This document shows positions 6,497 to 59,346 of a stretch of DNA of 64,000 bases, one piece after another. The notes under the pieces were generated by a model. The model saw only the letters and a list, made by a program, of their open reading frames with translations. It made no database searches and was not told the origin of the DNA. Numbering within the stretch: position 1 is the first letter of the stretch; every line of letters begins with the position of its first letter. Location: NCBI GenBank assembly GCA_030648265.1, contig JAUSHX010000013.1, positions 3,030 to 67,029 of the forward strand, read 5' to 3'. The position numbers and the translations under genes are program-made. The DNA is from a bacterium. GTDB taxonomy: Bacteria; Patescibacteriota; Minisyncoccia; Phycocordibacterales; UBA2100.

Positions 6497-6498
6497 TT

Positions 6499-35103: not shown

Positions 35104-35152
35104 AACCGCCCTTACCGCACAAGTATACCTTGCGCAATAAGGGCGGTTTTCT
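35104..35152. terminator. Bidirectional terminator hairpin AAAACCGCCCTTACCGCACAAGTATACCTTGCGCAATAAGGGCGGTTTT
   Basis: Long GC stem flanked by A-run and T-run. Confidence 0.75.
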
Positions 35153-35377
35153 ACCTCGATTTCTCTCGGTACAAGACGCGGTGCCACCTTAATTCATCCC
35201 GAGACTGTTTAACAATCGAGGGACCTCGTTATTCTTTTACGGAGAATTCCGGACTTCCACTACTGCAGAAATCACCTTCTCACCACATACAAAAGTGATG
35301 AAATCCAGGCCCAATCTCTTGGTCCTCCTTTGGAGGACTAGAGACCTGAACAGCGTTACCTAATCGCGATTGTACCA

Positions 35378-45027: not shown

Positions 45028-45111
45028 AAAAAGTTTACAGTTGACGGTGAACAGTTAACAGTAAAGAGGTCCCTGAGTTTCCTGTAATCTGTAAACTGTA
45101 GACTGTGAACT
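45028..45111 (-). repeat. Family-4 intercistronic element
   Basis: TTTACAGTTGACGGTGAACAGTTAACAGT ... CTGTAATCTGTAAACTGTAGACTG between rplO and secY. Confidence 0.65.
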
Positions 45112-45561
45112 TCATATCGTTACGGTTCCGCCCGCCTTTTCAATCGCAGCGCGTGCAGTAGCGGAAACCACGCATCCTTTGAAATGCAATTTCTTGTCTG
45201 TTCCCCCGCCCATAATCTTGATTGGCGGAAAGAGAGGGCCGCGCGCGCGAATTATCATTTTCTCCTTCAACGCCTTCGGGGTAATCTCTGCGCCATCGGC
45301 AAAAATCTTTGCCACAACCGAGAGCGAAACCGGGATTGCGTCCTTGCGCGAAGGATTGACCGTACGGCCGCGATTCTTTCCGTATCCGCGGCGCTTGGGC
45401 AGTTTCTTTATGATGTCGCGGAGCTCCGGACGTTTCTTTCGGCCGGCACGGGCGTTCTGACCCTTTGTGCCGCGTCCCGCTGTTTTTCCGCGCTTGCCGC
45501 CGCGCCCCACGCGCATGCGCGAACGCGCCGTTATTCTTTTCAAGGTGTGTAATCCCGCCAT
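45112..45561 (-). CDS. rplO: 50S ribosomal protein L15
   Basis: RVGRGGKRGKTAGRGTKGQ. Confidence 0.9.
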   Translation of the reverse strand: MAGLHTLKRITARSRMRVGRGGKRGKTAGRGTKGQNARAGRKKRPELRDIIKKLPKRRGYGKNRGRTVNPSRKDAIPVSLSVVAKIFADGAEITPKALKEKMIIRARGPLFPPIKIMGGGTDKKLHFKGCVVSATARAAIEKAGGTVTI

Positions 45562-45563
45562 AA

Positions 45564-46199
45564 TTATTTTGAGACCGCTTTGAGTGCAGCCATTGCAGCG
45601 CGTGCATTGTTCAGCGGATTCTTGGAACGTGAGAGCAGTTTCGCCGTAACGTCGGAAATTCCCGCCAGTTCCAATACGGCTCGCACCGATGAACCGGCCA
45701 CAAGTCCGCGGCCGGGACTCGGCCTGATTTCCACGACCGATGCGCAGTACTTTGCTTCCACGTTACGCGGAATGCTTCTGGTTTTTGTGAGATTAATCGT
45801 GAGCATACTGCGCTTTGCCGCACGAGTCGCCTTTTCTATCGCCAACGCGGTGTCGGCGGCTTTCCCCAAGCCGACACCGACGCGCCCCTTCTTGTCCCCA
45901 AGAACGATGGCGACGCTGAAGTTAAAGCGCCGTCCGCCAGCCATAACGCGCGCGACGCGCCGAATGCCGATAAGTTTCTGGGCAAATTCGCTTCTGCGCT
46001 CATCGCGCTCCTTCCGTGGTCCTCGAGAAGGGCGGCCACGCATTCCTCCGCGGTCGCGGTCTCCCCCGCGGCGCGGAAAAGCCTTTTTCTCCGGCTCTTT
46101 CGTTTCAACGGGCACAACAGTTTCGTCAACTGGCAACAGGACTACTTCCGGTACAACAACCTCCTCCGCTTCGTCTATTATTTTTGGTTCAGCAGACAT
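45564..46199 (-). CDS. rpsE: 30S ribosomal protein S5 (with N-terminal extension)
   Basis: GRRFNFSVAIVLGDKKGRVGVGLGKA. Confidence 0.9.
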   Translation of the reverse strand: MSAEPKIIDEAEEVVVPEVVLLPVDETVVPVETKEPEKKAFPRRGGDRDRGGMRGRPSRGPRKERDERRSEFAQKLIGIRRVARVMAGGRRFNFSVAIVLGDKKGRVGVGLGKAADTALAIEKATRAAKRSMLTINLTKTRSIPRNVEAKYCASVVEIRPSPGRGLVAGSSVRAVLELAGISDVTAKLLSRSKNPLNNARAAMAALKAVSK

Positions 46200-46385
46200 A
46201 TCTTAGATTTAATTAGTGAGCGAAGCGAGCTTAGTAAATCTTAGACCCAGCACCACTTTTGAACTCCAGCAGTTCTTGCCGATGAGTTCTGGCTGTGATT
46301 GCTTTCGGTAGTTTTGCATAATTATCATAAGTTTCAAAAGTGGTGCTGGGTAAGTAAAATATAGTCGCTTTGCTCCTTATTTTAT
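46200..46385 (-). repeat. Family-1 element, copy 5 (stem ACCCAGCACCACTTTTGAA / TTCAAAAGTGGTGCTGGGT)
   Basis: Conserved arms. The loop is related to copy 15. Confidence 0.85.
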
Positions 46386-46724
46386 TTAGAATTGAAGTCC
46401 GGCGGTGCGCGCGGCATCAGCAAACGCTTTTATCGTTCCCTGGTACTGGAACCCGCCGCGGTCAAACACGACGGCCTTGATTCCTTTTTTGCCCGCGAGG
46501 GAGGCAAGAGTACCCGCGGCCGCTTCCGCGCGCTCTTTGGGAGTCTTTCCCTTCGCGTCATCGGACGATATGGCGGCGAGAGTCACCCCCTTCGCGTCAT
46601 CAATGAGCTGGGCGATAAGGCGCGTGTTTGATTTGTATACCGAGAGGCGCGGGCGCTGTTCCGTGCCGATGACCTTGGCGCGGACGCGGCGGTGCCTGCG
46701 TATTCTGTTATCTTGTTTTGTCAT
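46386..46724 (-). CDS. rplR: 50S ribosomal protein L18
   Basis: RLSVYKSNTRLIAQLIDD. Confidence 0.9.
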   Translation of the reverse strand: MTKQDNRIRRHRRVRAKVIGTEQRPRLSVYKSNTRLIAQLIDDAKGVTLAAISSDDAKGKTPKERAEAAAGTLASLAGKKGIKAVVFDRGGFQYQGTIKAFADAARTAGLQF

Positions 46725-46836
46725 GTTAGTTTTTCTTAACGAGTGATAACGAGTTTAGAAACAACTTACACCCAGCACCTTTCGCGAAAGGTGCTGGGTA
46801 AAGAAATAGTAATTCATTTCATTCATAACGATTTCA
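46725..46836 (-). repeat. Family-1 element, copy 6 (fully palindromic core ACCCAGCACCTTTCGCGAAAGGTGCTGGGT)
   Basis: Fills the rplF-rplR spacer from the stop codon to the start codon. Confidence 0.9.
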
Positions 46837-47382
46837 TTATGCGGCTGCGCTTGTGACTTTCTTACCCGCCTTCTTGCGTACGACCTCTCCTTCATATCGG
46901 ATGCCCTTGCCCTTGTACGGCTCCGGCTTCTTGAGTGCCCGCACTGAGGCCGCAAACTGACCAACCTGCTCCCTGTCAGAACCAGAAACCGTTATGATGT
47001 TCTTCTCAACGGTAACGTGCAGACCTTCCGGAATTGCGACTTTGACGGGATGAGAAAAGCCGATTGCGAGCGAAAGTGTTTTTCCCGAAAGCTCGGCTTT
47101 GAAACCGATGCCCTCTATCTGAAGTTTCTTCACAAACGGTTTGGCTACGCCCTGAATCATGTTGCGAATGTGCGCGGCATACGTTCCCCACAGGGCGCGG
47201 GCAAGGCGGGTTTCTGCCGTGGGCACAACGGTGACCGAGCCATTCTCAATATTGATGGAAATCTGCCGGTGCAGAGCGCGCGTGAGAACGCCGTCCTTTC
47301 CTTTGACGCTGATTATTCCATCGGCCACGGAAATTTCCGTGCCCGATGGTATTGCGATTGCTCTTTTTCCGGTGCGGCTCAT
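46837..47382 (-). CDS. rplF: 50S ribosomal protein L6
   Basis: Two-domain L6 motifs. Confidence 0.9.
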   Translation of the reverse strand: MSRTGKRAIAIPSGTEISVADGIISVKGKDGVLTRALHRQISINIENGSVTVVPTAETRLARALWGTYAAHIRNMIQGVAKPFVKKLQIEGIGFKAELSGKTLSLAIGFSHPVKVAIPEGLHVTVEKNIITVSGSDREQVGQFAASVRALKKPEPYKGKGIRYEGEVVRKKAGKKVTSAAA

Positions 47383-47650
47383 GTTAGTTTTTCTTAACGA
47401 CCGAGCACTTTCTGACGATGCAGGTCTGAATAACTGTTTTAATGTTCCTTTTCGTGTTCATGTTTTTATAATCAATTAGCTTCTGAAAGTGCTCGGGGGT
47501 TTAGAAACAACTTACACCCAGCACCTTTAACGTACAGAATGCCGCGGGTTGGCGGAGTGTATTCCTTTGCGTTGTGCTTGATAAGTAAGTTCATATTGCT
47601 GGAAAAGGTGCTGGGTAAGTAAAATATAGTCGCTTCGCTCCTTATTTTAC
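47383..47650 (-). repeat. Family-1 element, copy 7, with a second hairpin (CCGAGCACTTTC...GAAAGTGCTCGG) nested in its arm
   Basis: Conserved arms. An extra 95-nt hairpin sits at about 47404-47500. Confidence 0.8.
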
Positions 47651-48046
47651 TTACCATATCTCAAACAACGCCTCGCCTCCGACATTTTCTTTGCGCGCCT
47701 CTTTGCCCGTAAGAATTCCCTTGGGAGTTGAGAGGACTAGGGTGCCGTGGCCGTACCGCACCGGCATAATTTCGCTCACGCTCCGGTACATCCTCCGTCC
47801 CGGTTTTGAGATGCGCTTTACGCCGTGGATGACGTGGATTCCGTCGCTGTCATATTTGAGAACTACGTCCAGTGTCTTGCGGACCTTTTTCCCTTTCTTG
47901 TCTATTGATGCGACAAATCCGGCATCTTTCAACTTTTCGGCGACCGCCAGCTTGAGTGAAGAAAACGGCACGGAGACCGATTCCTTTTTCACGGCCCCCG
48001 CATTCTTGAGGCGGATTATGAAATCACCAATCGTATCGTTTACCAT
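47651..48046 (-). CDS. rpsH: 30S ribosomal protein S8
   Basis: DTIGDFIIRLKNA. Confidence 0.9.
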   Translation of the reverse strand: MVNDTIGDFIIRLKNAGAVKKESVSVPFSSLKLAVAEKLKDAGFVASIDKKGKKVRKTLDVVLKYDSDGIHVIHGVKRISKPGRRMYRSVSEIMPVRYGHGTLVLSTPKGILTGKEARKENVGGEALFEIW

Positions 48047-48167
48047 GTTAGTTTTTCTTGCGAGCGTAAGCGAGTTAGAAACAACTTACACCCAGCACCT
48101 TTGTTTCATTGAGAAACGAAGGTGCTGGGTAAAGAAATAGTAATTCATTTTATTCATAACGATTTCT
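48047..48167 (-). repeat. Family-1 element, copy 8
   Basis: ACCCAGCACCTTTGTTTCATTGAGAAACGAAGGTGCTGGGT core. Confidence 0.9.
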
Positions 48168-48353
48168 TTACCAAGAGGACTTCTTAATTCCCGGAATGTT
48201 TCCTTCAAGCGCCTCCTCGCGGAAGCAAATACGGCAAAGATTGAAATCACGCAGGAAACCGCGCGGGCGCCCGCATTTGAAACAGCGCCGGATTACCCGG
48301 CTCTTGAACTTGGGCGGTCTTTGCGCCTTTACAACCATTGACCTCTTTGCCAT
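48168..48353 (-). CDS. rpsN: 30S ribosomal protein S14 type Z (61 aa, zinc-binding)
   Basis: [23 protein letters not shown]. Confidence 0.9.
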
Positions 48354-48395
48354 ATCAGATTTTGTTACGAGCGAAGCGAGTTAGAAAATCTTATA

Positions 48396-48688
48396 CCCAG
48401 CACCTTGTTTGTTTACGACAGACTGTTTTTAAGGCGATTCTTTACATAAGTGCGAGCGTTGCCATATTGCTTGAGTTGCAATTCGCGCCTTACCGCGTCT
48501 TGCTTCGCTTTATAGCTCTCGACATAGACATACTCCCATGGTCGACCGCGACTCGTTGCCGTGACTTGTCCGCTGTTGTGCGAAGCAAGACGCTCATCAA
48601 GATTCTCGGTTCTGCCAAAGTAAAGAACGCCTTTTTCAACACTGCGGATTACGTACACATGGTACATAAACAAACAAGGTGCTGGGTT
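48396..48688 (-). mobile_element. Candidate GIY-YIG mini-element: 21-bp perfect terminal inverted repeats enclosing a single nuclease ORF
   Basis: The TIRs are identical over 21 bp. The ORF start lies 10 nt inside one TIR and the stop overlaps the other. Copies 2, 8 and 17 look like internal-deletion derivatives (ACCCAGCACCTTTGTTTC...GAAACGAAGGTGCTGGGT). Confidence 0.6.
48413..48667 (-). CDS. GIY-YIG nuclease family protein (UPF0213/YhbQ-like), 84 aa
   Basis: MYHVYVIRS..GVLYFGRTENLDERLASHNSG...WEYVYVESY...A..RE.QLK. The ORF track starts 2 codons earlier at a TTG. Confidence 0.75.
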   Translation of the reverse strand: MYHVYVIRSVEKGVLYFGRTENLDERLASHNSGQVTATSRGRPWEYVYVESYKAKQDAVRRELQLKQYGNARTYVKNRLKNSLS

Positions 48689-48929
48689 ACGAAAATCATA
48701 GTCGCCTCGCTTCGCTACGGCTTCTTGATTTTCAGTAATACCCCGAAGGAGAAGCTAGAAACTCCTGCATCCTGCCTTGCGGCTGAAGATTACGGAAGCT
48801 TCTTCGCGTGACCCTGTTCTTCGTCCAACTTGTGGTTGAAAAACAAAGCCCCCAACGAGGCTCCGAAAATATACGCGAGATGCGGATGAAAGTCAAACTT
48901 CAAAAAGTCTGTTCTGAAACTAATTCGGA

Positions 48930-49529
48930 TCAAAACTTGTCTATATCGTCATTTGCTTCCCGACGCTCTTTTCTTCTTTTGAATATTTCTTCTTGAGAAA
49001 GTTTTCTACCGGGTACAAACCCCTCTCGCTTTTCCTGCTTTTGGCCTGTTTTAACTAGCATTTTCTTCCATGCGGCATCCAACGCGGGCCCAAGTTCATC
49101 AATAGGGAACCTGCGGAGAATCATCTCCCTTTCGATAGACCACGTATGCTCACCGTGCGTGGCGTAGTCAGACCCCCGTTCTCTGCGCACAGCGCTCTTT
49201 TGTTGATGAGAATCTTTTCCGAATGTGATTTTGCTGTTTATAGTACCTATGGTTTCCTCCTTTTCATTGGGATTGCGGAGGTAGTTAGTCATTCTTGATG
49301 AATAATCTACTATTTTTATCATTTCGTCATCAGAAATAGGGATTTTAAGTTCCTCTATTTCTTTTCTGAGGAAATCTTCAAAAATTGCATTGTCTACCAT
49401 TTCCTCTCCCGCGGTCTGTCCCGATTCTTTTGCTTTATCCGCCATGAGTCCTTCAAACTTCTCCGTACTCGCCTCGTGTTCTTTCTCTCGCTCGGTAGAA
49501 GCGTTTCTTTTGCCCATTTCTAGTGCCAT
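48930..49529 (-). CDS. Hypothetical hydrophilic protein (199 aa)
   Basis: ORF only; charged and low-complexity; no recognisable domain. Confidence 0.35.
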   Translation of the reverse strand: MALEMGKRNASTEREKEHEASTEKFEGLMADKAKESGQTAGEEMVDNAIFEDFLRKEIEELKIPISDDEMIKIVDYSSRMTNYLRNPNEKEETIGTINSKITFGKDSHQQKSAVRRERGSDYATHGEHTWSIEREMILRRFPIDELGPALDAAWKKMLVKTGQKQEKREGFVPGRKLSQEEIFKRRKERREANDDIDKF

Positions 49530-49657
49530 AATTTTATGCCTTATTTCCTAATTTCTTAATGCTACCCCCACCCTCCAGATACGCAAGCGGCAAAAGTGGA
49601 CATCAAAAGTCTCTCCGCCTGCTTTTTTTCTCTTCCCTTTCACCTTTCTGGGGATAA

Positions 49658-49703
49658 CCCATGTCCCTATCCAGTGGCTATAGCTATAATATAAGGACAT
49701 GGG
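49658..49703. promoter_or_regulatory. Hairpin CCCATGTCC-CTATCCAGTGGCTATAGCTATAATATAA-GGACATGGG overlapping the start of PaaX-like paralog 2
   Basis: Contains a perfect TATAAT 8 nt before the ATG. A near-identical copy lies at about 50311-50356 just after the gene. Confidence 0.75.
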
Positions 49704-50286
49704 AAGAATGGAGCTCGCGGCAAAAAAGCGCCGGAGGAAAGAGAACGTCCAACAGATAGTGCTGGGAGTAGTCGCGGTTGCGGGCATACTTGCAGTAACA
49801 ATGATTGCGCCCAATATTTTCCAAGCTATTCCGCGCCTGTTGGGCGATAAATATAAGTTTGGTTATCGAGCGCGTACCGCCGCCGGCCGCCTTGCGCAAA
49901 AGGGATACGTACGCTTCGTGGAACGAAACGGCAAGAAGTTTGTGGAGATAACAGAGAAAGGAAAACGCGCATACGCATTGGAAAAGGCAAGATTCACGGC
50001 ATACACAAACATCAACAAGCGCTGGGACAAACGCTGGCGAATTGTTGCTTTTGACATCCCAGAGACTCGGCGAGGAACACGCGAACGTGTGCGCAGACTG
50101 ATGCGCGAATTCGGGTTCCTTAAACTACAAGACAGCGTTTGGGTATTTCCCTACGACTGCGAGGAACTTATTACAATGATGAAGGCAGAACTGCGGATTG
50201 GTAAGGATATCCTGTACATAATCGCGGACACTATCGAGAACGACCAATGGGTGAGAAGACAGTTTAACCTTCTCAAAGAATCATAG
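49699..50286 (+). CDS. Membrane-anchored wHTH + PaaX_C/Cas2-like domain protein, paralog 2
   Basis: TM helix VLGVVAVAGILAV; wHTH AAGRLAQKGYVRFVERNGKKFVEITEKG; RWDKRWRIVAFDIPETRRGTRERVRRLMREFGFLKLQDSVWVFPYDCEEL. Confidence 0.6.
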   Translation: MGRMELAAKKRRRKENVQQIVLGVVAVAGILAVTMIAPNIFQAIPRLLGDKYKFGYRARTAAGRLAQKGYVRFVERNGKKFVEITEKGKRAYALEKARFTAYTNINKRWDKRWRIVAFDIPETRRGTRERVRRLMREFGFLKLQDSVWVFPYDCEELITMMKAELRIGKDILYIIADTIENDQWVRRQFNLLKES

Positions 50287-50310
50287 TGTCGTCCTATTTC
50301 TCTCGGTTTT

Positions 50311-50356
50311 CCATATCCCTATCCAGTGGCTATAGCTATAATATAAGGACATTGGG
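50311..50356. promoter_or_regulatory. Second copy of the paralog-2 hairpin
   Basis: CCATATCCCTATCCAGTGGCTATAGCTATAATATAAGGACATTGG. Confidence 0.75.
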
Positions 50357-50413
50357 CCATGCAAGATACACCTCCAAAGAGTGCGCGGGCGACGACAGTA
50401 TCTTTCTGTTTTT

Positions 50414-50959
50414 CTATTTCTTTGCTTCTGCTTCCTTCAGCGGCAATCCCAAGTACCTTAAGAATGCCTCCGCCTCTTTCTTATTTTTTGCCGTTGTGAC
50501 AACCGTCACCGCGAGTCCGAAGATATCCTTGCTGTCTTCATCGGATGTCTCGGGGAATACGATGTTCTCCTTGATGCCTATCGTGATGTTGCCCATTTCA
50601 TCTATGGTTTCAGGCCGAATGCCGCGGAAGTCTTTTGAGCGCGGGAGAACAATATGAATGAGTTTGTCCAAGAAGGTCTGCGCCCGCTTGTTGCGCAACG
50701 TGACTTGAAAGCCGACTTGGTCGCCCGCGCGGATTTTAAAGGTTGCAATGGATTTTTTGGCCATGCGCGCCGCCGGTGCCTGCCCCGTTATTCTCGTCAG
50801 GCGGTCTTTGATAACCTCGCGCTTTTTAGGGTCATGCTTTGCGCCGACTCCGGTTGAGACGACAATTTTAGAAACCTTCGGCGCCTGCATAACGCTCTTG
50901 TAGTGAAATTCCGTTTTGAGAGCTTCAAATGTTTTGTGCTGTGCTGTTTGTGTTTTCAT
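50414..50959 (-). CDS. rplE: 50S ribosomal protein L5
   Basis: PKVSKIVVSTGVG... Confidence 0.9.
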   Translation of the reverse strand: MKTQTAQHKTFEALKTEFHYKSVMQAPKVSKIVVSTGVGAKHDPKKREVIKDRLTRITGQAPAARMAKKSIATFKIRAGDQVGFQVTLRNKRAQTFLDKLIHIVLPRSKDFRGIRPETIDEMGNITIGIKENIVFPETSDEDSKDIFGLAVTVVTTAKNKKEAEAFLRYLGLPLKEAEAKK

Positions 50960-51090
50960 GTGTTAGAGATTCTTAGTGAGTGCTAACGAGCTTAGAAGCT
51001 CTTACACCCTGTTAAATGCGACTTCGTCGCCCCGCCTTTGGCGGGATTTAACAGGGTCAAGAAATTATAATTCGCTTTGCTCATAAAAAT
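50960..51090 (-). repeat. Family-1 element, copy 10, with alternative stem ACCCTGTTAAAT/ATTTAACAGGGT (same variant as copy 4)
   Basis: Loop GCGACTTCGTCGCCCCGCCTTTGGCGGG, similar to the copy-4 loop. Confidence 0.85.
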
Positions 51091-51399
51091 TTACTTGACT
51101 TCCTGCCCGCTTACAACCGCAACGCGGACGCGGACGCCCTCTTTTCGTTCAATGCGGATGCGGGTCGGCTTGCCTCCCTTCGGGTCCGCAAGCATCACGT
51201 TAGAAGCATGAATGGACATCGGCTTCTCTATAATTTGCCCTGTGCGGTTCTGCGCCGACGCCTTGCGGTGTTTTTTGACCATGTTCACGCCATCAATAGT
51301 GACGCGGTTCTTTTTAGGCAACACATGCGCAATCGTGCCCGAAGCGCCGCGATTCTTGCCCGCTATAACTATTATTTTATCTCCTTTCTTTAGTTTCAT
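51091..51399 (-). CDS. rplX: 50S ribosomal protein L24
   Basis: KKGDKIIVIAGKNRGASG (KOW motif). Confidence 0.9.
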   Translation of the reverse strand: MKLKKGDKIIVIAGKNRGASGTIAHVLPKKNRVTIDGVNMVKKHRKASAQNRTGQIIEKPMSIHASNVMLADPKGGKPTRIRIERKEGVRVRVAVVSGQEVK

Positions 51400-51573
51400 G
51401 TTAGAGATTATTAGCGAGTATTCCGAGCTTAGAAGCTCTTACACCCAGCACCTTTTACGCCAATGCTGTTGGTTGCAGGATAATACTGTCTAAGCGCGAT
51501 TTGGGCAAGAAAATTCATAGAGATTTAAAGGTGCTGGGTTTAGAAAAATATAGTCGCGTTGCTCCTTATTTTT
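51400..51573 (-). repeat. Family-1 element, copy 11 (78-nt loop identical to copy 12)
   Basis: The loop TTTTACGCCAATGCTGTTGGTTGCAGGATAATACTGTCTAAGCGCGATTTGGGCAAGAAAATTCATAGAGATTTAAA is repeated in 51946-52100. Confidence 0.85.
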
Positions 51574-51945
51574 CTAAACGACCTCAGGCGCCAATGTTAC
51601 GATTTTCTGATAGCCCCGCTCAATCACCTCGCGCGGGATGGGGCCAAAAACGCGATTTGCTTTCGGTTCCTTCTTTTCCTTCTCTACCAACACAACCGCA
51701 TTCTCGTCAAAACGAATGTATGAGCCGTCTTTTCGGCGGAAGGCCTTCTTTTGCCGGACGACCACGGCGCGGTAAATCTCTTTCTTCTTCACCGATTTGC
51801 GCGGCTGGGCGGTCTGAATTGAAATAACGACTTCGTCGCCAAGTTCTGCATAACGGCGCTTTGAACCGCCGAGAACTTTGAAAACACGTCCGATGATTCC
51901 TCCGGAGTTGTCAGCAATTTTTACGAGTGAACGCGGTTGGATCAT
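51574..51945 (-). CDS. rplN: 50S ribosomal protein L14
   Basis: MIQPRSLVKIADNSGG. Confidence 0.9.
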   Translation of the reverse strand: MIQPRSLVKIADNSGGIIGRVFKVLGGSKRRYAELGDEVVISIQTAQPRKSVKKKEIYRAVVVRQKKAFRRKDGSYIRFDENAVVLVEKEKKEPKANRVFGPIPREVIERGYQKIVTLAPEVV

Positions 51946-52100
51946 GTTAGTTTTTGTTACGAGCGAAGCGAGTTAGAAAATCTTACACCCAGCACCTTTT
52001 ACGCCAATGCTGTTGGTTGCAGGATAATACTGTCTAAGCGCGATTTGGGCAAGAAAATTCATAGAGATTTAAAGGTGCTGGGTAATGTAAAACATAGTCG
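51946..52100 (-). repeat. Family-1 element, copy 12
   Basis: Same loop as copy 11. Confidence 0.85.
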
Positions 52101-52370
52101 CTACGCTTCTTGTTTTACTATTATGAACCGTTTGAGCTTGGAAATAGGTCGTGTTTCGCGGATTGTCACCTTCTCACCGACCGCCGCCGTGTTCCCCGGA
52201 TTGTGTACAAGGAATTTCTTACTGCGCTTCATGTACTTCTTGTATTTTGGATGCTTCACGTAACGTTCAACCTGAACGGTGATCGTGTCTTTCATTGCAG
52301 ACTTGACGACCACTCCCTCAAGGAATTTTCCTTCCTGCTCTATACTTGTTGAATTATTTTGTTTTTCCAT
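52101..52370 (-). CDS. rpsQ: 30S ribosomal protein S17
   Basis: GVVVKSAMKDTITVQVERYVKHPKYKK. Confidence 0.9.
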   Translation of the reverse strand: MEKQNNSTSIEQEGKFLEGVVVKSAMKDTITVQVERYVKHPKYKKYMKRSKKFLVHNPGNTAAVGEKVTIRETRPISKLKRFIIVKQEA

Positions 52371-52503
52371 ATGTATGTTCCAATCTACGAATATATTTCA
52401 ATCTACGAATATATTCCAATCTACAAATAACTACAAATGAGCGGCGTCGTATATTCGTAGCCATTCGTAGCATTCGCATCATTTGTAGATTGGGATTTCA
52501 TAT
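52371..52503 (-). repeat. Family-2 intercistronic repeat, copy 3
   Basis: CCAATCTACGAATATATTTCAATCTACGAATATATTCCAATCTACAAATAACTACAAATG...CATTTGTAGATTGGGAT. Confidence 0.8.
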
Positions 52504-52698
52504 TTATTTATTTTGTTCGTTCTTCCTTGATTGCACCTCGGTCAATATTTGCGCTATCTCTCTGCGCACATTCCTGCCTTCCCTGACATCCCGTACTCGG
52601 CTTCCTGCTCCACCGAAGCGGAACACCCGCAACGCTTCGCGCTTTTCCGCAACAGTACGCAGTAATTCCTCTGTGCTTTGTGATTTTATGTCATTCAT
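52504..52698 (-). CDS. rpmC: 50S ribosomal protein L29 (ORF track extends 15 codons upstream into the repeat; likely start MNDIKSQ)
   Basis: STEELLRTVAEKREALRVFRF. Confidence 0.8.
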   Translation of the reverse strand: MNDIKSQSTEELLRTVAEKREALRVFRFGGAGSRVRDVREGRNVRREIAQILTEVQSRKNEQNK

Positions 52699-52813
52699 AA
52701 TGTTCCAATCTACGAATATATTCCAATCTACAAATACCTGCAAATGAGCGACACCGTATATTCGTAGCCATTCGTAGTATTCGTATCATTTGCAGATTGG
52801 GACTTCATAGGGT
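52699..52813 (-). repeat. Family-2 intercistronic repeat, copy 4
   Basis: CCAATCTACGAATATATTCCAATCTACAAATACCTGCAAATG...CATTTGCAGATTGGGAC, with compensatory T/C changes in the stem. Confidence 0.8.
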
Positions 52814-53236
52814 TTACTGCCTGTCAATAATACGAACCTTGAACGGCAGTTTCTTGCCTGCTTTTCGCAGAGCCTCGCGAGCCATTGCTTCGGGAGCGCC
52901 GTCCACTTCAAAAATAACGCGTCCCGGTCGCACATCAAAAACGTAGCCCGCCACGTCGCCTTTTCCGCTACCCATGCCGACTTCCGCCGCCTTTTGCGTG
53001 CGGGGACGGTCGGGGAAAACGCGAATCCAGACTTTTGCGCTTTTTCCCGCGGCTCGCGTGAGCGCCCGGCGCGCCGCTTCTATCTGATTAGAAGTAAGAC
53101 GGGCCTGTCCCATGGCCTTGAGACCGTAGGAGCCGAAGGCGAGCGTGAGCCCGCGCGTCTCCGGCCTCACCAGACGGTCGCCCCGTCTGCGGCCTGTTTG
53201 CCATTTGCGATGCGCTGTTTTTTTAGGAGCCAACAT
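52814..53236 (-). CDS. rplP: 50S ribosomal protein L16
   Basis: RKWQTGRRRGD...GSGKGDVAGYV. Confidence 0.9.
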   Translation of the reverse strand: MLAPKKTAHRKWQTGRRRGDRLVRPETRGLTLAFGSYGLKAMGQARLTSNQIEAARRALTRAAGKSAKVWIRVFPDRPRTQKAAEVGMGSGKGDVAGYVFDVRPGRVIFEVDGAPEAMAREALRKAGKKLPFKVRIIDRQ

Positions 53237-53473
53237 GGTAGATTTTTACTGAGCGAAGCGATGATAATCGGTATTAATACTCATATTGGCTCCTCGGCTC
53301 GGAAAAGAAAGTGAGTACACTTCCTTTTCACTCGCCCTACGTCGCCAATAAAAATCACCACCCAGCACCTTTACACCCAAAGTGCTTTCCGATGTGCAAA
53401 GGATTTTTGTAACTCTATTTTGGATATTGTAGTTCATAGTGCTGTAAAAGGTGCTGGGTCTCGATAAAAATAG
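53237..53473 (-). repeat. Family-1 element, copy 13 (arm carries an extra insertion)
   Basis: ACCCAGCACCTTTACACCC...GCTGTAAAAGGTGCTGGGT, with about 90 nt of extra sequence in the arm nearest rplP. Confidence 0.8.
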
Positions 53474-54148
53474 TCACTTCGTTCCTTTTTTATCGGAAAA
53501 TATTTCCCCCCTGTATATCCAGACTTTTACGCCCAAGACACCGTACGGCAGGTACGCAACTTCGCGCGCAAAATCAATGTCGGCGCGCAGAGTCTGCAGA
53601 GGCACGCGCCCTCGCTTGATTTCCTCCGTTCGCGACATTTCGGCGCCTCCCAAGCGGCCGGCAATGGCAATGCGAACCCCCTGCACGTCCCTGTTTGCCA
53701 TTACTTTCTCAACCGTTTGCTTCAAGACTCTCCGGAACGGCATGCGCTTCTCCAATCCTTCGGCCACCATGTAGGCGACAACCGGAGATTGCGACTCCGG
53801 CGAGCGGACTTCTTCAATATCCAGTTTCACCGTCCGCGGCTCCACGCCCTTTATCTTACGGATGAGTACCTCTATCTCTTTGGTGAGCTTAACGCTCCCC
53901 TCGCCGCCGCGGCCGATGACAAGTCCCGGACGGGATGTCTTCAGAAGGACGCGGACAATCTTCTCTCTCCGCTCTATTTCTACAGATGTAATATAGTTCC
54001 CGCGCAAACGTTTCTTGATAAAACGGCGGATTGAGGAGTCAATCATAACGTTCTCGCGGTATTGCGCCGGAGTCTTTGAGAACCAACGGGATTTCCAGTC
54101 ACGGATTATTCCCAGGCGGTGTGCGAACGGATGTACGGTGTGGGTCAT
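53474..54148 (-). CDS. rpsC: 30S ribosomal protein S3
   Basis: KH-domain motif GLVIGRGGEG and C-terminal domain. Confidence 0.9.
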   Translation of the reverse strand: MTHTVHPFAHRLGIIRDWKSRWFSKTPAQYRENVMIDSSIRRFIKKRLRGNYITSVEIERREKIVRVLLKTSRPGLVIGRGGEGSVKLTKEIEVLIRKIKGVEPRTVKLDIEEVRSPESQSPVVAYMVAEGLEKRMPFRRVLKQTVEKVMANRDVQGVRIAIAGRLGGAEMSRTEEIKRGRVPLQTLRADIDFAREVAYLPYGVLGVKVWIYRGEIFSDKKGTK

Positions 54149-54309
54149 GTTAGATTTTGTTATGAGCGAAGCGAGTTAGAAAATCTTACACCCAGCACCT
54201 TTTGCGATAATAATGCTTTGGGTCGCAGGATGATACTGTTTAGCGGCAATTTGAGCAATGAAGTTCACAGTGCTTAAAAGGTGCTGGGTCAAAATTGTGA
54301 TATTGGTAT
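54149..54309 (-). repeat. Family-1 element, copy 14 (loop related to copies 11 and 12)
   Basis: Loop TTTTGCGATAATAATGCTTTGGGTCGCAGGATGATACTGTTTAGCGGCAATTTGAGCAATGAAGTTCACAGTGCTTAAAA. Confidence 0.85.
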
Positions 54310-54675
54310 TCATGATTTTTTTGCCACAATTTTGGCTTTTGCAGGCTTTACCTTTGATTGTCCAAGCTCAATTTTGATAATGCTGTATGTTTTGCGCAAA
54401 GTACCGGAGCGGCCGCGGCCGAACGGGCGCGCTCGGCGCGCAACTGCCCCTTTGTCAACACTCACGTGCCTCACGAAGAGCCCCTCGGGAGAAATTCCGG
54501 AATTCCGCGAGTTCGCAACGGCCGACTCCAAAAGCTTGCTGAACGCCTCAGAAGATTTCTGCATCAAAAATGAGAGCGCCACGCGCGCCTGCGGAACCGT
54601 CTTCCCGCGTATCAAATCCGCGACAAGGCGAACCTTCCTCGGCGACTGATGATAGTTTGTGAGCAGTGCTTTCAT
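54310..54675 (-). CDS. rplV: 50S ribosomal protein L22
   Basis: QSPRKVRLVADLIRGK. Confidence 0.9.
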   Translation of the reverse strand: MKALLTNYHQSPRKVRLVADLIRGKTVPQARVALSFLMQKSSEAFSKLLESAVANSRNSGISPEGLFVRHVSVDKGAVARRARPFGRGRSGTLRKTYSIIKIELGQSKVKPAKAKIVAKKS

Positions 54676-54861
54676 ATCTTAGATTTAGTTAGTGAGCGAA
54701 GCGAGCTTAGTAAATCTTAGATCCAGCACTAATTTTGAGCTCCAGCATGTTTTGCTAATACGTTCTGGTCGTGGTTGGTTTCGATAGTTTTGCATATATT
54801 TATGAAGTTTCAAAATTGGTGCTGGATAAGTAAAATATAGTCGCTTCGCTCGTTATTTTAC
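54676..54861 (-). repeat. Family-1 element, copy 15, with stem ATCCAGCACTAATTTTGA / TCAAAATTGGTGCTGGAT (covarying version of copy 5)
   Basis: Arms and loop about 80% identical to copy 5, with paired substitutions in the stem. Confidence 0.85.
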
Positions 54862-55209
54862 TTATTTCTTCGCTTTCGCGGTGTCCGCTGTAGTTTTCGC
54901 AGCTTGGGCAGTGGCAATCTCGGCGGCTTTGGCCGCAGTTTCAATTTCCTTCTGCATCTTGCCTCCGTGTCTGATGAATTTCGTGGTTGGAGCGAATTCT
55001 CCCAAACGGTGTCCTACCATATCTTCTGTCACAAATACGTCATCAAAACTCTTGCCCGTGTGGACCGCAAACGTGTAGCCGACAAATTCAGGCGCGATCT
55101 GCGACCGGCGCGCCCACGTCTTAATAGACCCCTGGCCGCTTTTTCGGCTGGAGACTTTTTTCGCGAGTTTGACGTCAACGAATGGACCTTTTTTTAGTGA
55201 ACGTGTCAT
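54862..55209 (-). CDS. rpsS: 30S ribosomal protein S19 (with Ala/Lys-rich C-terminal tail)
   Basis: SLKKGPFVD...TFAVHTGK. Confidence 0.9.
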
Positions 55210-55400
55210 GTTAGAGGTTTGTTATGAGCGAAGCGAATTAGAAACTCTTACACCCAGCACCATTTTGATATCCGTATCATCATTTGCCATTTTGAGATTC
55301 TGCTGAGACCGTCTCAACAAAGCACTGCATTTGAGAGTAAGTCGCAGGATACCAAAATGGTGCTGGGTTGTGAAAATCATTGTCGCCTCGCTTCGCTACG
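55210..55400 (-). repeat. Family-1 element, copy 16 (its arm next to the stem is near-identical to the arm of the GIY-YIG copy)
   Basis: GGTGCTGGGTTGTGAAAATCATTGTCGCCTCGCTTCGCTACGGCTCCTTGATTTTC compared with copy 9 GGTGCTGGGTTACGAAAATCATAGTCGCCTCGCTTCGCTACGGCTTCTTGATTTTC. Confidence 0.85.
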
Positions 55401-55492
55401 GCTCCTTGATTTTCTACAAAATCCCGCGGCGGCGGGATTGGCACAATGTATAGGAAATTAGGCACTTAGTCAAATTTAGCCTGATATTTCCT

Positions 55493-56341
55493 CTACTTGC
55501 GTTTGCCAACTCTGCGTCTGGTAACCAAAAATACGTTGGAATACTTCTTCGGACGACGGGATTTCTGACCCTTTCCGGTCGGTTTGCCCCACATTGAACG
55601 CGCTCTGCGGTGTCCGCGGCCCTGGCGCCCCTCGCCTCCGCCGTGCGGGTGGTCCACCGGGTTCATCGCAGTACCCCGGACAGTCGGTCTCACTCCCATC
55701 CAGCGTGTACGGCCCGCTTTTCCGATATTCACAAGACGGTGTTCCTCGTTGGAGACTTCTCCGACAGAAGCCCATGCCGTGCCGATGACGCGACGGACTT
55801 CCGTTGACGGCATTTTCAAATGCGTATAGCCGGCGTCCTGAGCGACGATTTCGCAATAATTTCCGGCGGAGCGTGCGAGGCGCGCGCCGTTCCCCGGTTT
55901 CAGCTCTATGTTGTACACGAACGTTCCCACCGGCAAATTGCCGAGCGGCAAACGGTTCCCCAGAGTTACCGGCGCAGTCTCGGAAACAACGAACGTATCG
56001 CCCACCTTCACTTTTTGCGGAAGCACGACGTAGCGCTTCTCGCCGTCTGCATACACGGCAAGGCCGATGAATCCGGAACGGAACGGGTCGTATTCTATTG
56101 ACGCGATTCTTGCCGAAATATTCTTTTTGTCATAGATGAAATCTACCATGCGATAGTTGCGCTTGTGGCCGCCTCCCTTGTGGCGTGTAGTTATGCGACC
56201 CTGATTATTGCGCCCCACTCCGCGCTTGTATCCGCCGACAAGCGATTTCGTCGGCTTGTGGCCGGAAAGAAGTTCCCGATAGTTGAGGCGTGTCATTCCG
56301 CGCGCCCCCGGCGACGTTGGTTTGTATATTTTTAGTGTCAT
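55493..56341 (-). CDS. rplB: 50S ribosomal protein L2
   Basis: GRNNQGRITTRHKGGGHKR and the C-terminal GTAMNPVDHPHGGGEG. Confidence 0.95.
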   Translation of the reverse strand: MTLKIYKPTSPGARGMTRLNYRELLSGHKPTKSLVGGYKRGVGRNNQGRITTRHKGGGHKRNYRMVDFIYDKKNISARIASIEYDPFRSGFIGLAVYADGEKRYVVLPQKVKVGDTFVVSETAPVTLGNRLPLGNLPVGTFVYNIELKPGNGARLARSAGNYCEIVAQDAGYTHLKMPSTEVRRVIGTAWASVGEVSNEEHRLVNIGKAGRTRWMGVRPTVRGTAMNPVDHPHGGGEGRQGRGHRRARSMWGKPTGKGQKSRRPKKYSNVFLVTRRRVGKRK

Positions 56342-56460
56342 GTTAGTTTTTCTTAACGAGTAATCGAGTTTAGAAACAACTTACACCCAGCACCTTTGTT
56401 TCATTGAGAAACGAAGGTGCTGGGTCATGAAACTGTAATTCGCTTTGCTCATAATAATTT
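56342..56460 (-). repeat. Family-1 element, copy 17
   Basis: ACCCAGCACCTTTGTTTCATTGAGAAACGAAGGTGCTGGGT core. Confidence 0.9.
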
Positions 56461-56835
56461 CTATGAAAGGTTAATCGTTTCCCCTTTCTTGAGGTACACG
56501 TAGGCTTTCTTTCCACCGCCCTTCACGCCGAGCTTTCCCGTTCGGGCACTGCGCTTTCGCTTGCTCGGTACCGTAACGATGTGCACTTTGCGCGGAGTGA
56601 CCGTGTAAATTGCCCGCACCGCTTGTGCGATTTGCTGTTTGTTCGCATCCAAGGCAACGTCAAAAACATAGACGCCCTGCGCGCTGTGCCATGTAGACTT
56701 CTCCGTAATGCGGGGTTTTACGATAACGTGAGAAAGTCCGAGACTTTCACGCGCTTCGCTAACTGGTGCGGACTTAGGATTAGCGACCGCTACCGGCTTT
56801 TTCTCCGTCTTCTTTGTTTTGCTGAATAGAGCCAT
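56461..56835 (-). CDS. rplW: 50S ribosomal protein L23 (with N-terminal extension)
   Basis: VIVKPRITEKS...YVFDV...AVRAIY. Confidence 0.85.
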   Translation of the reverse strand: MALFSKTKKTEKKPVAVANPKSAPVSEARESLGLSHVIVKPRITEKSTWHSAQGVYVFDVALDANKQQIAQAVRAIYTVTPRKVHIVTVPSKRKRSARTGKLGVKGGGKKAYVYLKKGETINLS

Positions 56836-56883
56836 ATAAATCAGGGTTTAGGTTTTAGGGTATAGGTTATAGATAAATTCAAA

Positions 56884-57627
56884 TTAATTCTTCTTGGATG
56901 CACGGGACTGAATGATTGCAACGGACGCTTCAGGGTTTTCAATGACGATATACGCGTTACCGAGAACAGAAACCGGATTGATATTCCTGACGCTCACACA
57001 CTCAACACTGCCGATGTTGCGGAAACTCTTGGCGGTTGCGGGAGACAGGTCGGCAAATGCAATGAGCGCGGCATTCTTTTTCTTATTAGCGAGTCTTTCA
57101 AATCCAACAATCCCGGAAAGCGTGACGAGTGTTTGCCTGGCGGCCGCCGTCTTTGGAACGTTCAGCCCGAATGAATTGACAAAAAGGATTTCGCCGTCCC
57201 TGAACTTGCGCGAGAGTGCGGCAAAAAGCGCCTTTGCACGCATCTTTTTCGGAATTTCGCGCGCATACACTTTCTCTTTCAAGGGACCGTGCGTCACGCC
57301 TCCGCCTTTCCATATCGGAGAGCGTATGGAGCCGTGACGGGCGCGGCCGGTACCTTTCTGCTGCCATGGCTTTCGCCCGCCTCCGCGCACCTCGCCGCGA
57401 CTTTTTGTGTGCGCAATGATATTCCGCGCATTGGCCTGCATGGTCGTCACCACCTGGTGCATGAGTGCATCGTTCCACTTCACGCTAAAAACATTTTCCG
57501 GAAGTTCCAGAGTTCCCGTTTTCTTTCCCTGCGCGTCATAAATATCCGCTTGCATGCTGCGAGGAACAACCGCGTTGTTTTTCGGAGTCTTGGGTTCCTT
57601 TTTCAGTTTTATTATTTTTGTTGCCAT
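56884..57627 (-). CDS. rplD: 50S ribosomal protein L4
   Basis: GGGRKPWQQKGTGRAR. Confidence 0.9.
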   Translation of the reverse strand: MATKIIKLKKEPKTPKNNAVVPRSMQADIYDAQGKKTGTLELPENVFSVKWNDALMHQVVTTMQANARNIIAHTKSRGEVRGGGRKPWQQKGTGRARHGSIRSPIWKGGGVTHGPLKEKVYAREIPKKMRAKALFAALSRKFRDGEILFVNSFGLNVPKTAAARQTLVTLSGIVGFERLANKKKNAALIAFADLSPATAKSFRNIGSVECVSVRNINPVSVLGNAYIVIENPEASVAIIQSRASKKN

Positions 57628-57650
57628 AAATCTTTGCTTGATATGAAAAA

Positions 57651-58319
57651 TTATCCGCGGATTTCAACGAGTGTCCCCGGCTTCCCCGGAACCGCGCCGC
57701 CGATAAGAAGCGTATTCGTCGCCACGTCAATCTGAAGCACGCGAAGATTTTTCACCGTAATGCGGTCCCCTCCCATTCGGCCGGCCATGCGCATGCCTTT
57801 TGCAACTCGCCCTCCGGCGCGTCCGCCGCCGCCGATTGAGCCAGGCGAGCGTTCCTTGTTCTTTTGTCCGTGGCTTCTTGGACCACCGTGAAAGCCGTGC
57901 CGTTTAACAACGCCTTGAAAACCTTTTCCTTTTGATATCGCAGACACGGTAACGAGGTCGCCCTCTCTAAATACGGAAACATCTATGACCTTTCCGCGCT
58001 CAAGTCCGCCATCCGTGGGAAATTCACGCAAATTCCGGAAAAGCCCCAGGTATTTTCCGCCAGAGGCGCCCGCCTGCCCGGCCGGCAGGGATCCGCCTTC
58101 GGCGGAGAAATGTCCAAGTTGCGGTTTTGCAATATTCTTTTCTTTTTTGGTGCCAAAACCGACTTGCACCGCGGTGTAGCCGTCTTTTTCCTTGGTCTTA
58201 ACCTGCGTTACTGTAAGAGGGCCCGCAGTAATTATTGTGGCGGGAAAGATGACGCCCTTGTCATCAAAGACCTGGGTCATTCTTCCTTTCGTGCCGAGCA
58301 TAAACTTGTTAGATTTCAT
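57651..58319 (-). CDS. rplC: 50S ribosomal protein L3
   Basis: GTKGRMTQVFDDKG...GKGFQGVVKRHGF. Confidence 0.9.
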   Translation of the reverse strand: MKSNKFMLGTKGRMTQVFDDKGVIFPATIITAGPLTVTQVKTKEKDGYTAVQVGFGTKKEKNIAKPQLGHFSAEGGSLPAGQAGASGGKYLGLFRNLREFPTDGGLERGKVIDVSVFREGDLVTVSAISKGKGFQGVVKRHGFHGGPRSHGQKNKERSPGSIGGGGRAGGRVAKGMRMAGRMGGDRITVKNLRVLQIDVATNTLLIGGAVPGKPGTLVEIRG

Positions 58320-58500
58320 TGTGAACGCAGTGAACTAGGAAATCTTACACCCAGCACCATTTTTGCATCCCTACGATTCGTATTACTTCCCGATTTGGTT
58401 GAGACTGGCTCAACAAAGTCAGACACTTTTCACGCTAGAACGGATACAAAAATGGTGCTGGGTCGTGAGAATTATAGTCGCGCACTGCTCGCTCCTTAAT
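58320..58500 (-). repeat. Family-1 element, copy 18 (loop related to copy 16)
   Basis: ACCCAGCACCATTTTTGCATCC...TTGAGACTGGCTCAACAAAG...CAAAAATGGTGCTGGGT. Confidence 0.8.
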
Positions 58501-58707
58501 TCCCTACGAAAAAATCGCGCAACGGCAAATCGCTTGCGCGAGATACCATTGGTCCCTCCCCAATTACGGGGCGTGCCCCAGAATTGGGGAGGGACGTAGC
58601 GTTGGGGAAGTATACATACAGGCTCCCAAAATGCAAATATATGCTACCCGAGTTCAATGTAGAAGTGCACAGCCAAGTACACTCATGTTTTGTCGTGAGT
58701 AAACACT

Positions 58708-58779: not shown

Positions 58780-59346
58780 TCACGATAGTCCGAATCGTTT
58801 TTTGAGCGGGATGTCACCCTCGATGGTGTCAACAATCATATAGAGAACATCTCTCCCGACGTGAAAATCGGCCTTAATCATAGTAATAAGGTCTTCGCAA
58901 TCATATGGATACACCCATACGCTGTCTTGAAGTCGCACGAAGCCGATATCTTGAAGTATGTGCCGTAATTTGTCTCGCAATCCCTTGCGATATTCTGGAA
59001 TATCAAAAACTAACACGCGCCACTTGCGGTCCCAATGCCGTGGCTTGTCTTCGGAATAATCGCGCGCCCGAAGTATACGGAGTGCGCACTCGCCTTTTGC
59101 GGTGAGCCGCAACTTTTTGCCTTCCCACGCGAGAAGCCCTGCTCGCGCAAGCCTGTCGCAAGAACGTTCCACGACATTTTTCTGCCGCGGCGACCGTATG
59201 ATTCCTAGTTTTGCCATAGCCCCGACAACGTTTGGAGCGACAATAAATACGCTCACGAGTCCGGCAAACTTGACCGAATCAAGGATAATCCTCTTGAGTT
59301 CATTTTTACGCGTTCGTCTTTCGCTTTCCGCTTCCTTAATCCCCAT
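58780..59346 (-). CDS. Membrane-anchored wHTH + PaaX_C/Cas2-like domain protein, paralog 3
   Basis: TM helix FAGLVSVFIVAPNVV; wHTH RLARAGLLAWEGKKLRLTAKGE; HWDRKWRVLVFDIPEYRKGLRDKLRHILQDIGFVRLQDSVWVYPYDCEDL. Confidence 0.6.
   Translation of the reverse strand: MGIKEAESERRTRKNELKRIILDSVKFAGLVSVFIVAPNVVGAMAKLGIIRSPRQKNVVERSCDRLARAGLLAWEGKKLRLTAKGECALRILRARDYSEDKPRHWDRKWRVLVFDIPEYRKGLRDKLRHILQDIGFVRLQDSVWVYPYDCEDLITMIKADFHVGRDVLYMIVDTIEGDIPLKKRFGLS

Follow-up and report, generated by a model that had tools for sequence, protein, structure and literature searches.

The stretch of DNA analysed here is a 64-kb window of contig JAUSHX010000013.1 from a Kaiserbacterium; all coordinates refer to this window, and L-numbers (L023, L052 and so on) denote the loci or contigs of relatives that were fetched for comparison. 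On the minus strand, between 58.3 and 43.7 kb, lies a ribosomal-protein operon running from L3 to SecY, and a palindromic repeat, family-1, precedes 14 of its 20 start sites. Further copies sit before leuD, a RidA gene, the chorismate synthase gene and trpE, giving 18 in total, and the longest form of the repeat, upstream of S14, encloses a gene for an 84-amino-acid (aa) GIY-YIG nuclease. The repeat belongs to Kaiserbacteria and neighbouring Paceibacterota of the Candidate Phyla Radiation (CPR). We consider it probable, at roughly 60%, that family-1 is a mobile, mosaic palindromic repeat which forms a system with this small nuclease and persists as co-transcribed inserts reaching from one stop codon to the next start codon.

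The 10-bp stem ACCCAGCACC, with up to one mismatch allowed, has 32 matches on the two strands of the window, where shuffled sequences lead to an expectation of 2.3 and a maximum of 7. These matches pair into 16 inverted ACCCAGCACC/GGTGCTGGGT pairs, and two further copies, at 34960 (copy 4) and 50960 (copy 10), carry the alternative centre ACCCTGTTAAAT/ATTTAACAGGGT within the standard arms. Every copy is oriented with the genes around it and spans the distance from stop codon to next ATG. Seventeen lie on the minus strand, as the operon does, and the only plus-strand copy (copy 1, at 4056) is flanked by the plus-strand genes leuC and leuD. The first-pass annotation, made from the letters alone, had listed 18 copies of a distinct repeat filling most spacers of the operon, and both the positions and the occupancy were borne out; the copies align well past the 10-bp stem. 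The stem it ascribed to all of them is present in 16 and replaced in copies 4 and 10. Its claim of a uniform coding orientation stood, with the correction that the right arm it quoted matches the window only as the reverse complement. Its range of loop lengths, 0 to about 330 nucleotides (nt), was revised to 10-273 nt, measured between the 10-bp stems, and it had overlooked the nuclease gene inside the long loop of copy 9.

Three hairpins make up each copy: HL in the left arm, HC at the central palindrome, which carries a variable insert, and HR in the right arm. The 5′ stem of HL usually takes in the upstream stop codon, as in UAGAAAAAUA...UAUUUUUCUA, and its loop is conserved as (A/U)GAGCGAAGCGA. 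In HC, the invariant stem of 10 bp is lengthened by 3-12 pairs that depend on the class and carries the insert at its tip, with GTAAG as a conserved, oriented 3′ flank. In HR the loop reads UCGCUUCGCUC, reverse-complementary to that of HL, and after HR come AAC and the start codon (...CTAAC-ATG). HL and HR are mutually inverted copies with loops GAGCGAAGCGA and TCGCTTCGCTC, and the element begins with GTT(T)AGA... and ends with ...TCT(A)AAC, its arms being imperfect terminal inverted repeats.

The inserts fall into classes, whose lengths are given here with both 10-bp stems included. Class A is a 30-nt perfect palindrome, ACCCAGCACCTTTCG joined directly to CGAAAGGTGCTGGGT; class B measures 41 nt, class C 97-102 nt, class D 106-110 nt, class E 114-117 nt and class F 293 nt. 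The insert classes of the window are found again in other genomes, and relatives carry further central palindromes within the same arms. Class E holds a conserved inner hairpin, GTTGAGAC..GTCTCAAC, and class C inserts (e.g. 51453-51529, 54200-54279 and 47526-47606) share a conserved TATTATCC/TATCATCC motif. A reading of class C as a peptide of about 29 aa found no support: the frame MN.(L/F/I)AQ...Y(Y/H)P...VKGAGCK is present in six copies, the others being frameshifted or lacking an open reading frame (ORF). What is conserved may be a small ORF in decay or a motif at the nucleic-acid level.

Four copies lie outside the operon. Copy 1 (4039-4151, plus strand; HC 4079-4108) fills the leuC/leuD spacer, has the leuC stop codon within HL and is of class A, with the 30-nt perfect palindrome. 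The remaining three are on the minus strand, as are all those that follow: copy 2 (23753-23879), a class B copy with a 41-nt centre (HC 23797-23837) upstream of the RidA/L-PSP gene; copy 3 (29860-30046), a class C copy (HC 29903-30002) upstream of the chorismate synthase gene aroC; and copy 4 (34960-35099), with the alternative centre, between the terminator of a T-box-like leader and the ATG of trpE. Within the operon, and read against the direction of transcription, copy 5 (46200-46391; class D, HC 46245-46351) occupies the L18 to S5 spacer and copy 6 (46725-46838; HC 46770-46799), again a class A copy with the perfect 30-nt palindrome, that from L6 to L18. Copy 7 (47383-47656; class C, HC 47516-47616), between S8 and L6, has a nested palindromic module, CCGAGCACTTTC...GAAAGTGCTCGG, in the loop of HR at about 47401-47498. 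Copy 8 (48047-48171; class B, HC 48090-48130) lies between S14 and S8. Copy 9 (48354-48733; HC 48395-48687), upstream of S14, is the complete form, in which HL, stem, a 273-nt insert, stem and HR follow one another and the nuclease gene (84 aa and stop codon) occupies 48413-48667 inside the central hairpin.

Beyond the L5/S14 gap, copy 10 (50960-51093) fills the L24 to L5 spacer with its alternative central palindrome at 51007-51059. It is followed by the class C copies 11 (51400-51578; HC 51443-51539; L14 to L24), 12 (51946-52103; HC 51987-52083; S17 to L14) and 13 (53237-53476; HC 53360-53459; S3 to L16), the last with an extra insert in HR at about 53265-53348. Copy 14 (54149-54312; class C, HC 54190-54289; L22 to S3) has a degenerate HL, and copy 15 (54676-54864; class D; S19 to L22) a variant stem, ATCCAGCACC/GTGCTGGAT, at 54718-54827. 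Copy 16 (55210-55422; class E, HC 55252-55368; L2 to S19) shows the long form of HL that is also seen in copy 9, copy 17 (56342-56464; HC 56385-56425; L23 to L2) is of class B, and copy 18 (58302-58512; class E, HC 58349-58463) lies upstream of L3. The longest ORF of L3 begins at an ATG within HR of copy 18 (58319); given this in-frame ATG inside the right arm and the comparison with homologs, the true start is probably the ATG of MLGTKGRMTQ at 58301.

HL, insert and HR assort independently between copies. The inserts of copies 11 and 12 are 100% identical within arms that are 65-68% identical, the arms of copies 6 and 8 are 95% and 83% identical around different centres, and copies 12 and 14 agree in HR (96%) but differ in HL (50%). 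Class B inserts recur unchanged in different arms and in different species, and in either orientation; HR also occurs alone, and additional palindromic modules lie nested within it. The kinship between loops proposed in the first-pass annotation agrees with these measurements, since the insert of copy 14 is 73% identical to both 11 and 12, those of copies 5 and 15 are 78% identical, and those of copies 16 and 18 are 63% identical.

The folding of the arms has been maintained. The three-hairpin folds reach z-scores between -3 and -7. Over 49 distinct sequences, pairing in the HR helix stands at 87.5%, compared with 30-44% when its partners are slid, and 6 of its 12 pairs show changes on both sides. 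The core pairs of HL are 100% paired, with exchanges between AT, GC, TA and CG, and the extension of the HC stem covaries across insert classes. On the sense strand of these stems, G.U pairs outnumber A.C pairs by 28 to 9, and therefore the sense strand, as RNA or single-stranded DNA, is the strand whose folding is maintained. The covariation of the HL and HR stems, the G.U excess and the placing of the stop codon within the HL stem would all suit a host RNA element, the main rival to a mobile origin. On this account the three hairpins are intercistronic mRNA signals, in which HL and HC protect the upstream 3′ end and HR with its AAC-AUG sets the start site, or directs a cut releasing leaderless mRNAs that begin with AUG, and the nuclease gene is a passenger using the hairpin tip as a safe site. 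The 10-bp HC stem, however, is invariant in sequence and does not covary, which suggests sequence-specific recognition and not structure alone; the reshuffling of modules resembles mobile DNA; and there is no match to an Rfam family. In Rfam 15, no match in the window reaches the gathering score, and between 45000 and 58600 the sole match is a spurious miRNA (E = 0.012).

The rule of position was scored on 61 distinct copies, from the window and the fetched loci and with or without an ORF. A same-strand ORF of at least 55 aa follows all 61, the ATG lies 41-47 nt after HC in 51, and (T/A)CTAAC stands directly before the ATG in 43. Such strict orientation and exact geometry are what a host RNA signal would lead one to expect. 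So is the manner in which translation appears to start in this genome: a motif resembling a Shine-Dalgarno (SD) site is found in 6 of the 67 window genes, and the short spacers of relatives are also without SD sites. Many first genes, and at least 12 genes of the window, have a TAnAAT box 6-9 nt upstream of the ATG, and this spacing implies leaderless mRNAs, which the sequence suggests are the norm in this Kaiserbacterium.

Copy 4 bears on how the repeat is expressed. The T-box-like leader upstream of trpE (35136-35301, minus strand) scores 27.8 bits, below the Rfam gathering score, and contains AAGGTGGCACCGCG and then a terminator. Copy 4 is inserted between that terminator and the trpE ATG, that is, within the 5′ untranslated region past the leader, which again fits a host RNA element. 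From this position it follows that transcription runs through the element and that HR does not act as a promoter; taken with a nuclease gene that has no promoter of its own, this points to transcription of the copies within polycistronic mRNA.

A second rival would make each copy a terminator-promoter cassette, with HC ending the upstream transcript and HR serving as promoter for a leaderless mRNA of the next gene. The genuine promoters of the genome do lie 6-9 nt upstream of the ATG, HR has AAGAAT or CAAAAT hexamers 5-7 nt before it, and one class A copy (46769-46800) is called terminator-like. That copy is the only one to pass the terminator scan, which gave 29 hits, no excess over the 21 ± 4.5 of shuffled sequences, in agreement with the earlier statement that the copies are not intrinsic terminators; most have no U-run. 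The HR hexamers, moreover, lack the conserved T1 and often the T6 of the TAnAAT boxes and have no -35 element, transcription started within copy 4 would escape the T-box-like leader, and in relatives spacers of 1-16 nt suffice for the expression of these genes. Consensus scans gave no support to a promoter or a terminator role, and we regard the cassette as most improbable.

The element is present in about 15 species-level genomes, and its occupancy of the operon was compared between the window, with about 15 copies there, and four relatives. The closest relative found, L052 (S3 96% identical in amino acids; ~84% in nucleotides across the operon), has operon spacers of 1-16 nt and no match to the HL or HR profile in 11 kb. 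L053 and L055 (75-76% nucleotide identity) have one copy each, and L054 (80%) has about five, most of its remaining spacers holding a different palindromic family. Because occupancy differs so sharply and L052 has no copies, the elements are dispensable and vary on the timescale of speciation. The first-pass annotation had taken family-1 for a spreading repeat, to be given up if all relatives had the identical element in their orthologous spacers; the empty spacers of L052 uphold that view. Other copies are shared between species. Copy 13, between S3 and L16, has counterparts in L053 and L054 that agree with it in their HL stem variant; the window shares its aroC copy with L024 and L038, and copy 18 has an ortholog in L023. 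These orthologous copies indicate that some copies are old and that loss must also occur, so that copies are both gained and lost.

For a host RNA element, these comparisons cut both ways. Orthology across species, with arms better conserved than inserts, is in its favour. Against it, L052 manages with short spacers and no copies at all, which means that the element is not required, and occupancy varies greatly, with a different repeat family in the same spacers of L054. The tie of the nuclease gene to HC at six unrelated sites, described below, is a further difficulty. As the full explanation we think a host function rather unlikely, and it may coexist with a mobile origin.

The class F insert of copy 9 encodes an 84-aa protein with GIY-YIG as its sole domain (PF01541, E = 3e-16). 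A profile search returned 644 homologs, beside 42 close ones; all are of about 84 aa and come from Kaiserbacteria, Wolfebacteria, Yanofskybacteria and other Patescibacteria, and the best 120 matches of the profile search are all CPR proteins. The insert is exactly 293 nt long in nine distinct sequences. In 23 homologs, Y5, Y16, G18, R26, H30, N31 and E62 are invariant, as is a C-terminal LKQYGNARTYVK.R motif, and the ratio of nonsynonymous to synonymous substitution rates (dN/dS) is 0.03-0.16, even with dS near saturation. The predicted structure has the GIY-YIG fold (pLDDT 85.7) and compares with Slx1 at a template modelling (TM) score of 0.68 and a root-mean-square deviation of 1.8 Å, and with I-TevI at a TM score of 0.51; UPF0213 and Slx1 fit it better. 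On the strength of the purifying selection, the invariant catalytic residues and the matching predicted fold, the gene encodes an enzyme that is being maintained and looks active, as opposed to a passenger in decay.

Seven distinct sites were found to hold the nuclease gene, which lies upstream of S14 (the window, L049, L054 and L067/L073), EF-G (L039), L10 (L056), GAPDH (L059/L063), HSP20 (L064) and RNase P RNA (L075), and between pheS and pheT (L077). In homologs of 55-99% identity, the ORF always lies inside ACCCAGCACC...GGTGCTGGGT, reads in the direction of the next gene and immediately precedes it. Canonical HL and HR accompany it in most Kaiserbacteria copies, and L049, L059, L064 and L077 have at least one arm that is degenerate or of another type. 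The homolog in L075, at 46% identity, is enclosed by a different, 18-bp inverted repeat of its own, which suggests that enzyme and hairpin co-diverge. On that Yanofskybacteria contig it lies at 6265-6646, directly upstream of the RNase P RNA-like sequence GAGGAAAGTCCGGGC... A metagenome scan for nuclease-bearing copies yielded 9 loci, mostly known already, and viral contigs scanned for phage carriage gave no match.

The nearest characterised proteins of this design are the Ssn nucleases, single-domain GIY-YIG proteins of ~94 aa (Chenal et al., 2025, Nat Commun, PMC11893778). Ssn binds oriented NTS/SRM hairpin repeats, which occur in hundreds of intergenic copies, and cuts adjacent single-stranded DNA in a strand-specific manner, being inactive on double-stranded DNA and on RNA; ssn genes are typically repeat-flanked, and the authors liken the architecture to insertion sequences and to REP/RAYT (PMC11893778). 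A search for plasmid homologs of the present nuclease, as a link to Ssn, returned one weak match only.

These features of the enzyme also bear on classical homing, in which a GIY-YIG dimer would cut the intact double-stranded 30-nt palindrome of class A, repair using HL and HR as homology would copy the gene into the centre, and the two half-sites would correspond to the stems on either side of the ORF. Homing would account for the perfection of the class A palindrome, for the placing of every insert exactly at its centre and for the movement of inserts independently of the arms. It would also fit the identity of the nuclease region, which exceeds that of neighbouring genes in L049 (81% vs ~70%) and L054 (89% vs ~80%). 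Yet the 84-aa protein consists of the catalytic domain alone and lacks any DNA-binding domain, Slx1 and UPF0213 resemble its predicted fold more closely than I-TevI does, and the characterised single-domain relatives, the Ssn proteins, leave double-stranded DNA uncut (PMC11893778). Homing also leaves the strict orientation of ORF-less copies and the spread of the arms unexplained, and class C-E inserts are unrelated to the ORF. We judge this route improbable.

The preferred reading, a mobile mosaic repeat paired with the nuclease, could operate as follows, where we infer the substrate and activity of the enzyme, the mobilisation pathway and any effect at the RNA level. The complete form would be the copy with the 84-aa nuclease gene at the tip of HC, and the shorter copies ORF-less derivatives or carriers of other cargo. 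The nuclease would recognise the sense-strand hairpin when single-stranded, for example in the lagging-strand template or in the non-template strand of highly transcribed operons. By analogy with Ssn nucleases on NTS repeats, it would nick beside the hairpin; such strand-specific cutting would have indirect support in the excess of G.U over A.C pairs on the sense strand and in the conserved, oriented GTAAG flank. Repair, recombination or strand transfer between copies would then spread and reshuffle the modules. Copies would survive only where they are harmless, in the exact stop-to-start spacer, in gene orientation and co-transcribed, and the A-rich tail of HR would keep the downstream start codon usable where SD sites are scarce.

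Several observations weigh against this reading. The zero spacing between the right end and the ATG may reflect selection and not a mechanism of insertion, and part of the distribution looks like vertical inheritance plus loss. No clear target-site duplication is seen; what stands at the ends, TAA or TAG at the left and the TAA within ...CTAAC at the right, is also the stop codon and part of the element, and comparison with the empty sites of L052 did not tell these apart. No transposase was seen in the window. Class C-E inserts (97-117 nt) were tried as remnants of the nuclease gene and rejected, a profile of nine nuclease inserts giving no match with nhmmer --max. Each locus has a single nuclease gene, and that of L049 has no other copies in 6 kb. 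Differences from Ssn add to these: among solved structures, the protein sequence is matched best by UPF0213 (1zg2, E = 2e-5), with Slx1 also matched, the published SRM motif HGTCWYN(0-2)YYVSBRHN(0-5)WNVSBRGN(0-2)RNCYNB has 0 matches on either strand of the window, and the gene lies here inside one hairpin, between its halves, and not between two complete repeats.

Some neighbouring features of the operon were recorded alongside the repeat. Upstream of copy 9 and S14, a 157-nt noncoding stretch (48742-48898, minus strand) shares 94% identity with L052, where coding sequence shares ~84%, and its conservation extends to L053-L055. The best promoter-like site of the region (TTGACT-17-TATATT) lies within it. 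The stretch folds well (z-score -4.1), has no Rfam match and may be a leader or a small RNA. A second, unrelated palindromic intercistronic family, CCAATCTACGAATAT..., flanks the L29 gene in the minus-strand spacers at 52371-52503 and 52708-52813 and has at least 10 copies in ribosomal-protein spacers of L054 where the window has family-1. A third type of repeat, made of CTGTAAAC/CAACTGT units, stands directly before start codons, in the L15 to SecY spacer (45028-45111) and upstream of the ATGs at ~42465 and ~15963. The gap between L5 and S14 (48930-50350) holds inserted genes for a 199-aa protein of unknown function and a PaaX/Cas2-like protein, with a direct repeat of about 40 nt containing TATAAT at ~49660 and ~50310. 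Relatives hold other cargo at this site (NYN, YafQ toxin and helix-turn-helix genes), which marks it as a hot spot of insertion. Another PaaX-like gene is located at 58780-59346.

If family-1 is indeed such a nuclease-linked mobile repeat, the pairing of a tiny GIY-YIG nuclease with a genome-wide hairpin repeat extends to the CPR. The case would be an extreme one, with the gaps between essential ribosomal-protein genes almost all filled in one species and all free of the repeat in a sister species, and it offers a natural test case of how streamlined small genomes tolerate invasive DNA in essential operons. It would also bear on SD-independent restart of translation, and the new nuclease/hairpin pair, with its invariant candidate recognition site, might serve as a tool for cutting single-stranded DNA. 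A bolder version, which we put forward tentatively and do not expect to hold, is that the ~380-nt unit of HL, stem, GIY-YIG gene, stem and HR mobilises itself via single-stranded DNA hairpins, targeting the non-template strand of highly transcribed operons, and that the hairpins also hand ribosomes on or process the mRNA at the next AUG, like mitochondrial tRNA punctuation but built from hairpins, in a CPR host poor in SD sites and with leaderless-type starts. Were this so, the unit would be among the smallest autonomous mobile elements known.

The closest described system is Ssn/NTS. In both, a single-domain GIY-YIG protein, here with intact catalytic residues, is encoded by a gene bracketed by inverted, hairpin-forming sequence that is itself multicopy and intergenic, and an invariant palindrome is accompanied by a conserved, non-palindromic, oriented flank (GTAAG in family-1). 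The present repeat differs in having the outer hairpins HL and HR as well, in filling the spacers of essential operons from stop to start codon in gene orientation, in its mosaic modules and in its host, a member of the CPR, which PMC11893778 does not mention. The protein is at most a candidate member of the Ssn clade cd10448 (GIY-YIG_unchar_3); its best hit among solved structures is UPF0213.

REP/BIME-RAYT systems (REPtrons) of Proteobacteria are similar in several respects. They too consist of inverted pairs of hairpin repeats with variable linkers in mosaic arrangement, are located in transcribed intergenic regions of operons, place a small nuclease gene between inverted repeat copies and vary in copy number among relatives. 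Their enzyme, however, is a Y1 (HUH) transposase of the IS200/IS605 type and not a GIY-YIG nuclease, no GTAG or CGTC head motif is seen in family-1, and family-1 units are larger (110-380 nt) and abut the start codon exactly.

Transcribed miniature inverted-repeat transposable elements (Correia/NEMIS, ERIC/IRU, RUP, BOX and RPE) are likewise 100-200 nt long, imperfectly palindromic, bounded by terminal inverted repeats, multicopy, often co-transcribed and expanded in particular lineages. Family-1 has no sequence or Rfam match to them, and differs in its strict orientation (61/61), its three covarying hairpins and its association with a GIY-YIG gene in place of a DDE transposase; RPEs, furthermore, insert in frame into genes, which family-1 does not. 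Integron attC sites were considered too, some copies having RYYYAAC/GTTRRRY-like ends; this reading was dropped, as the orientation does not fit the ORFs, the genes are essential ones for ribosomal proteins and there is no integrase. The earlier comparison with ERIC and RPE thus gives way to Ssn/NTS and REP/BIME-RAYT as the nearest described systems, and its judgement that the family is a distinct one is retained.

GIY-YIG homing genes (T4 Seg proteins and relatives of I-TevI) also place a small nuclease gene between co-oriented genes of conserved operons, are patchy among relatives and have flanking regions more similar than the surrounding genes. The family-1 nuclease differs from them in lacking a DNA-binding domain, in its predicted Slx1/UPF0213-like fold, in its strong long-term purifying selection and in its link to a multicopy genomic repeat. 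Apart from the one class A copy that passed the terminator scan, family-1 lacks the combination of GC-rich stem and U-run that defines an intrinsic terminator. Mitochondrial tRNA punctuation and plastid intercistronic expression elements are functional analogies only, being structured elements exactly between cistrons in systems of SD-less or leaderless translation; family-1 differs from them in being dispensable in close relatives, and mRNA processing at its hairpins is hypothetical.

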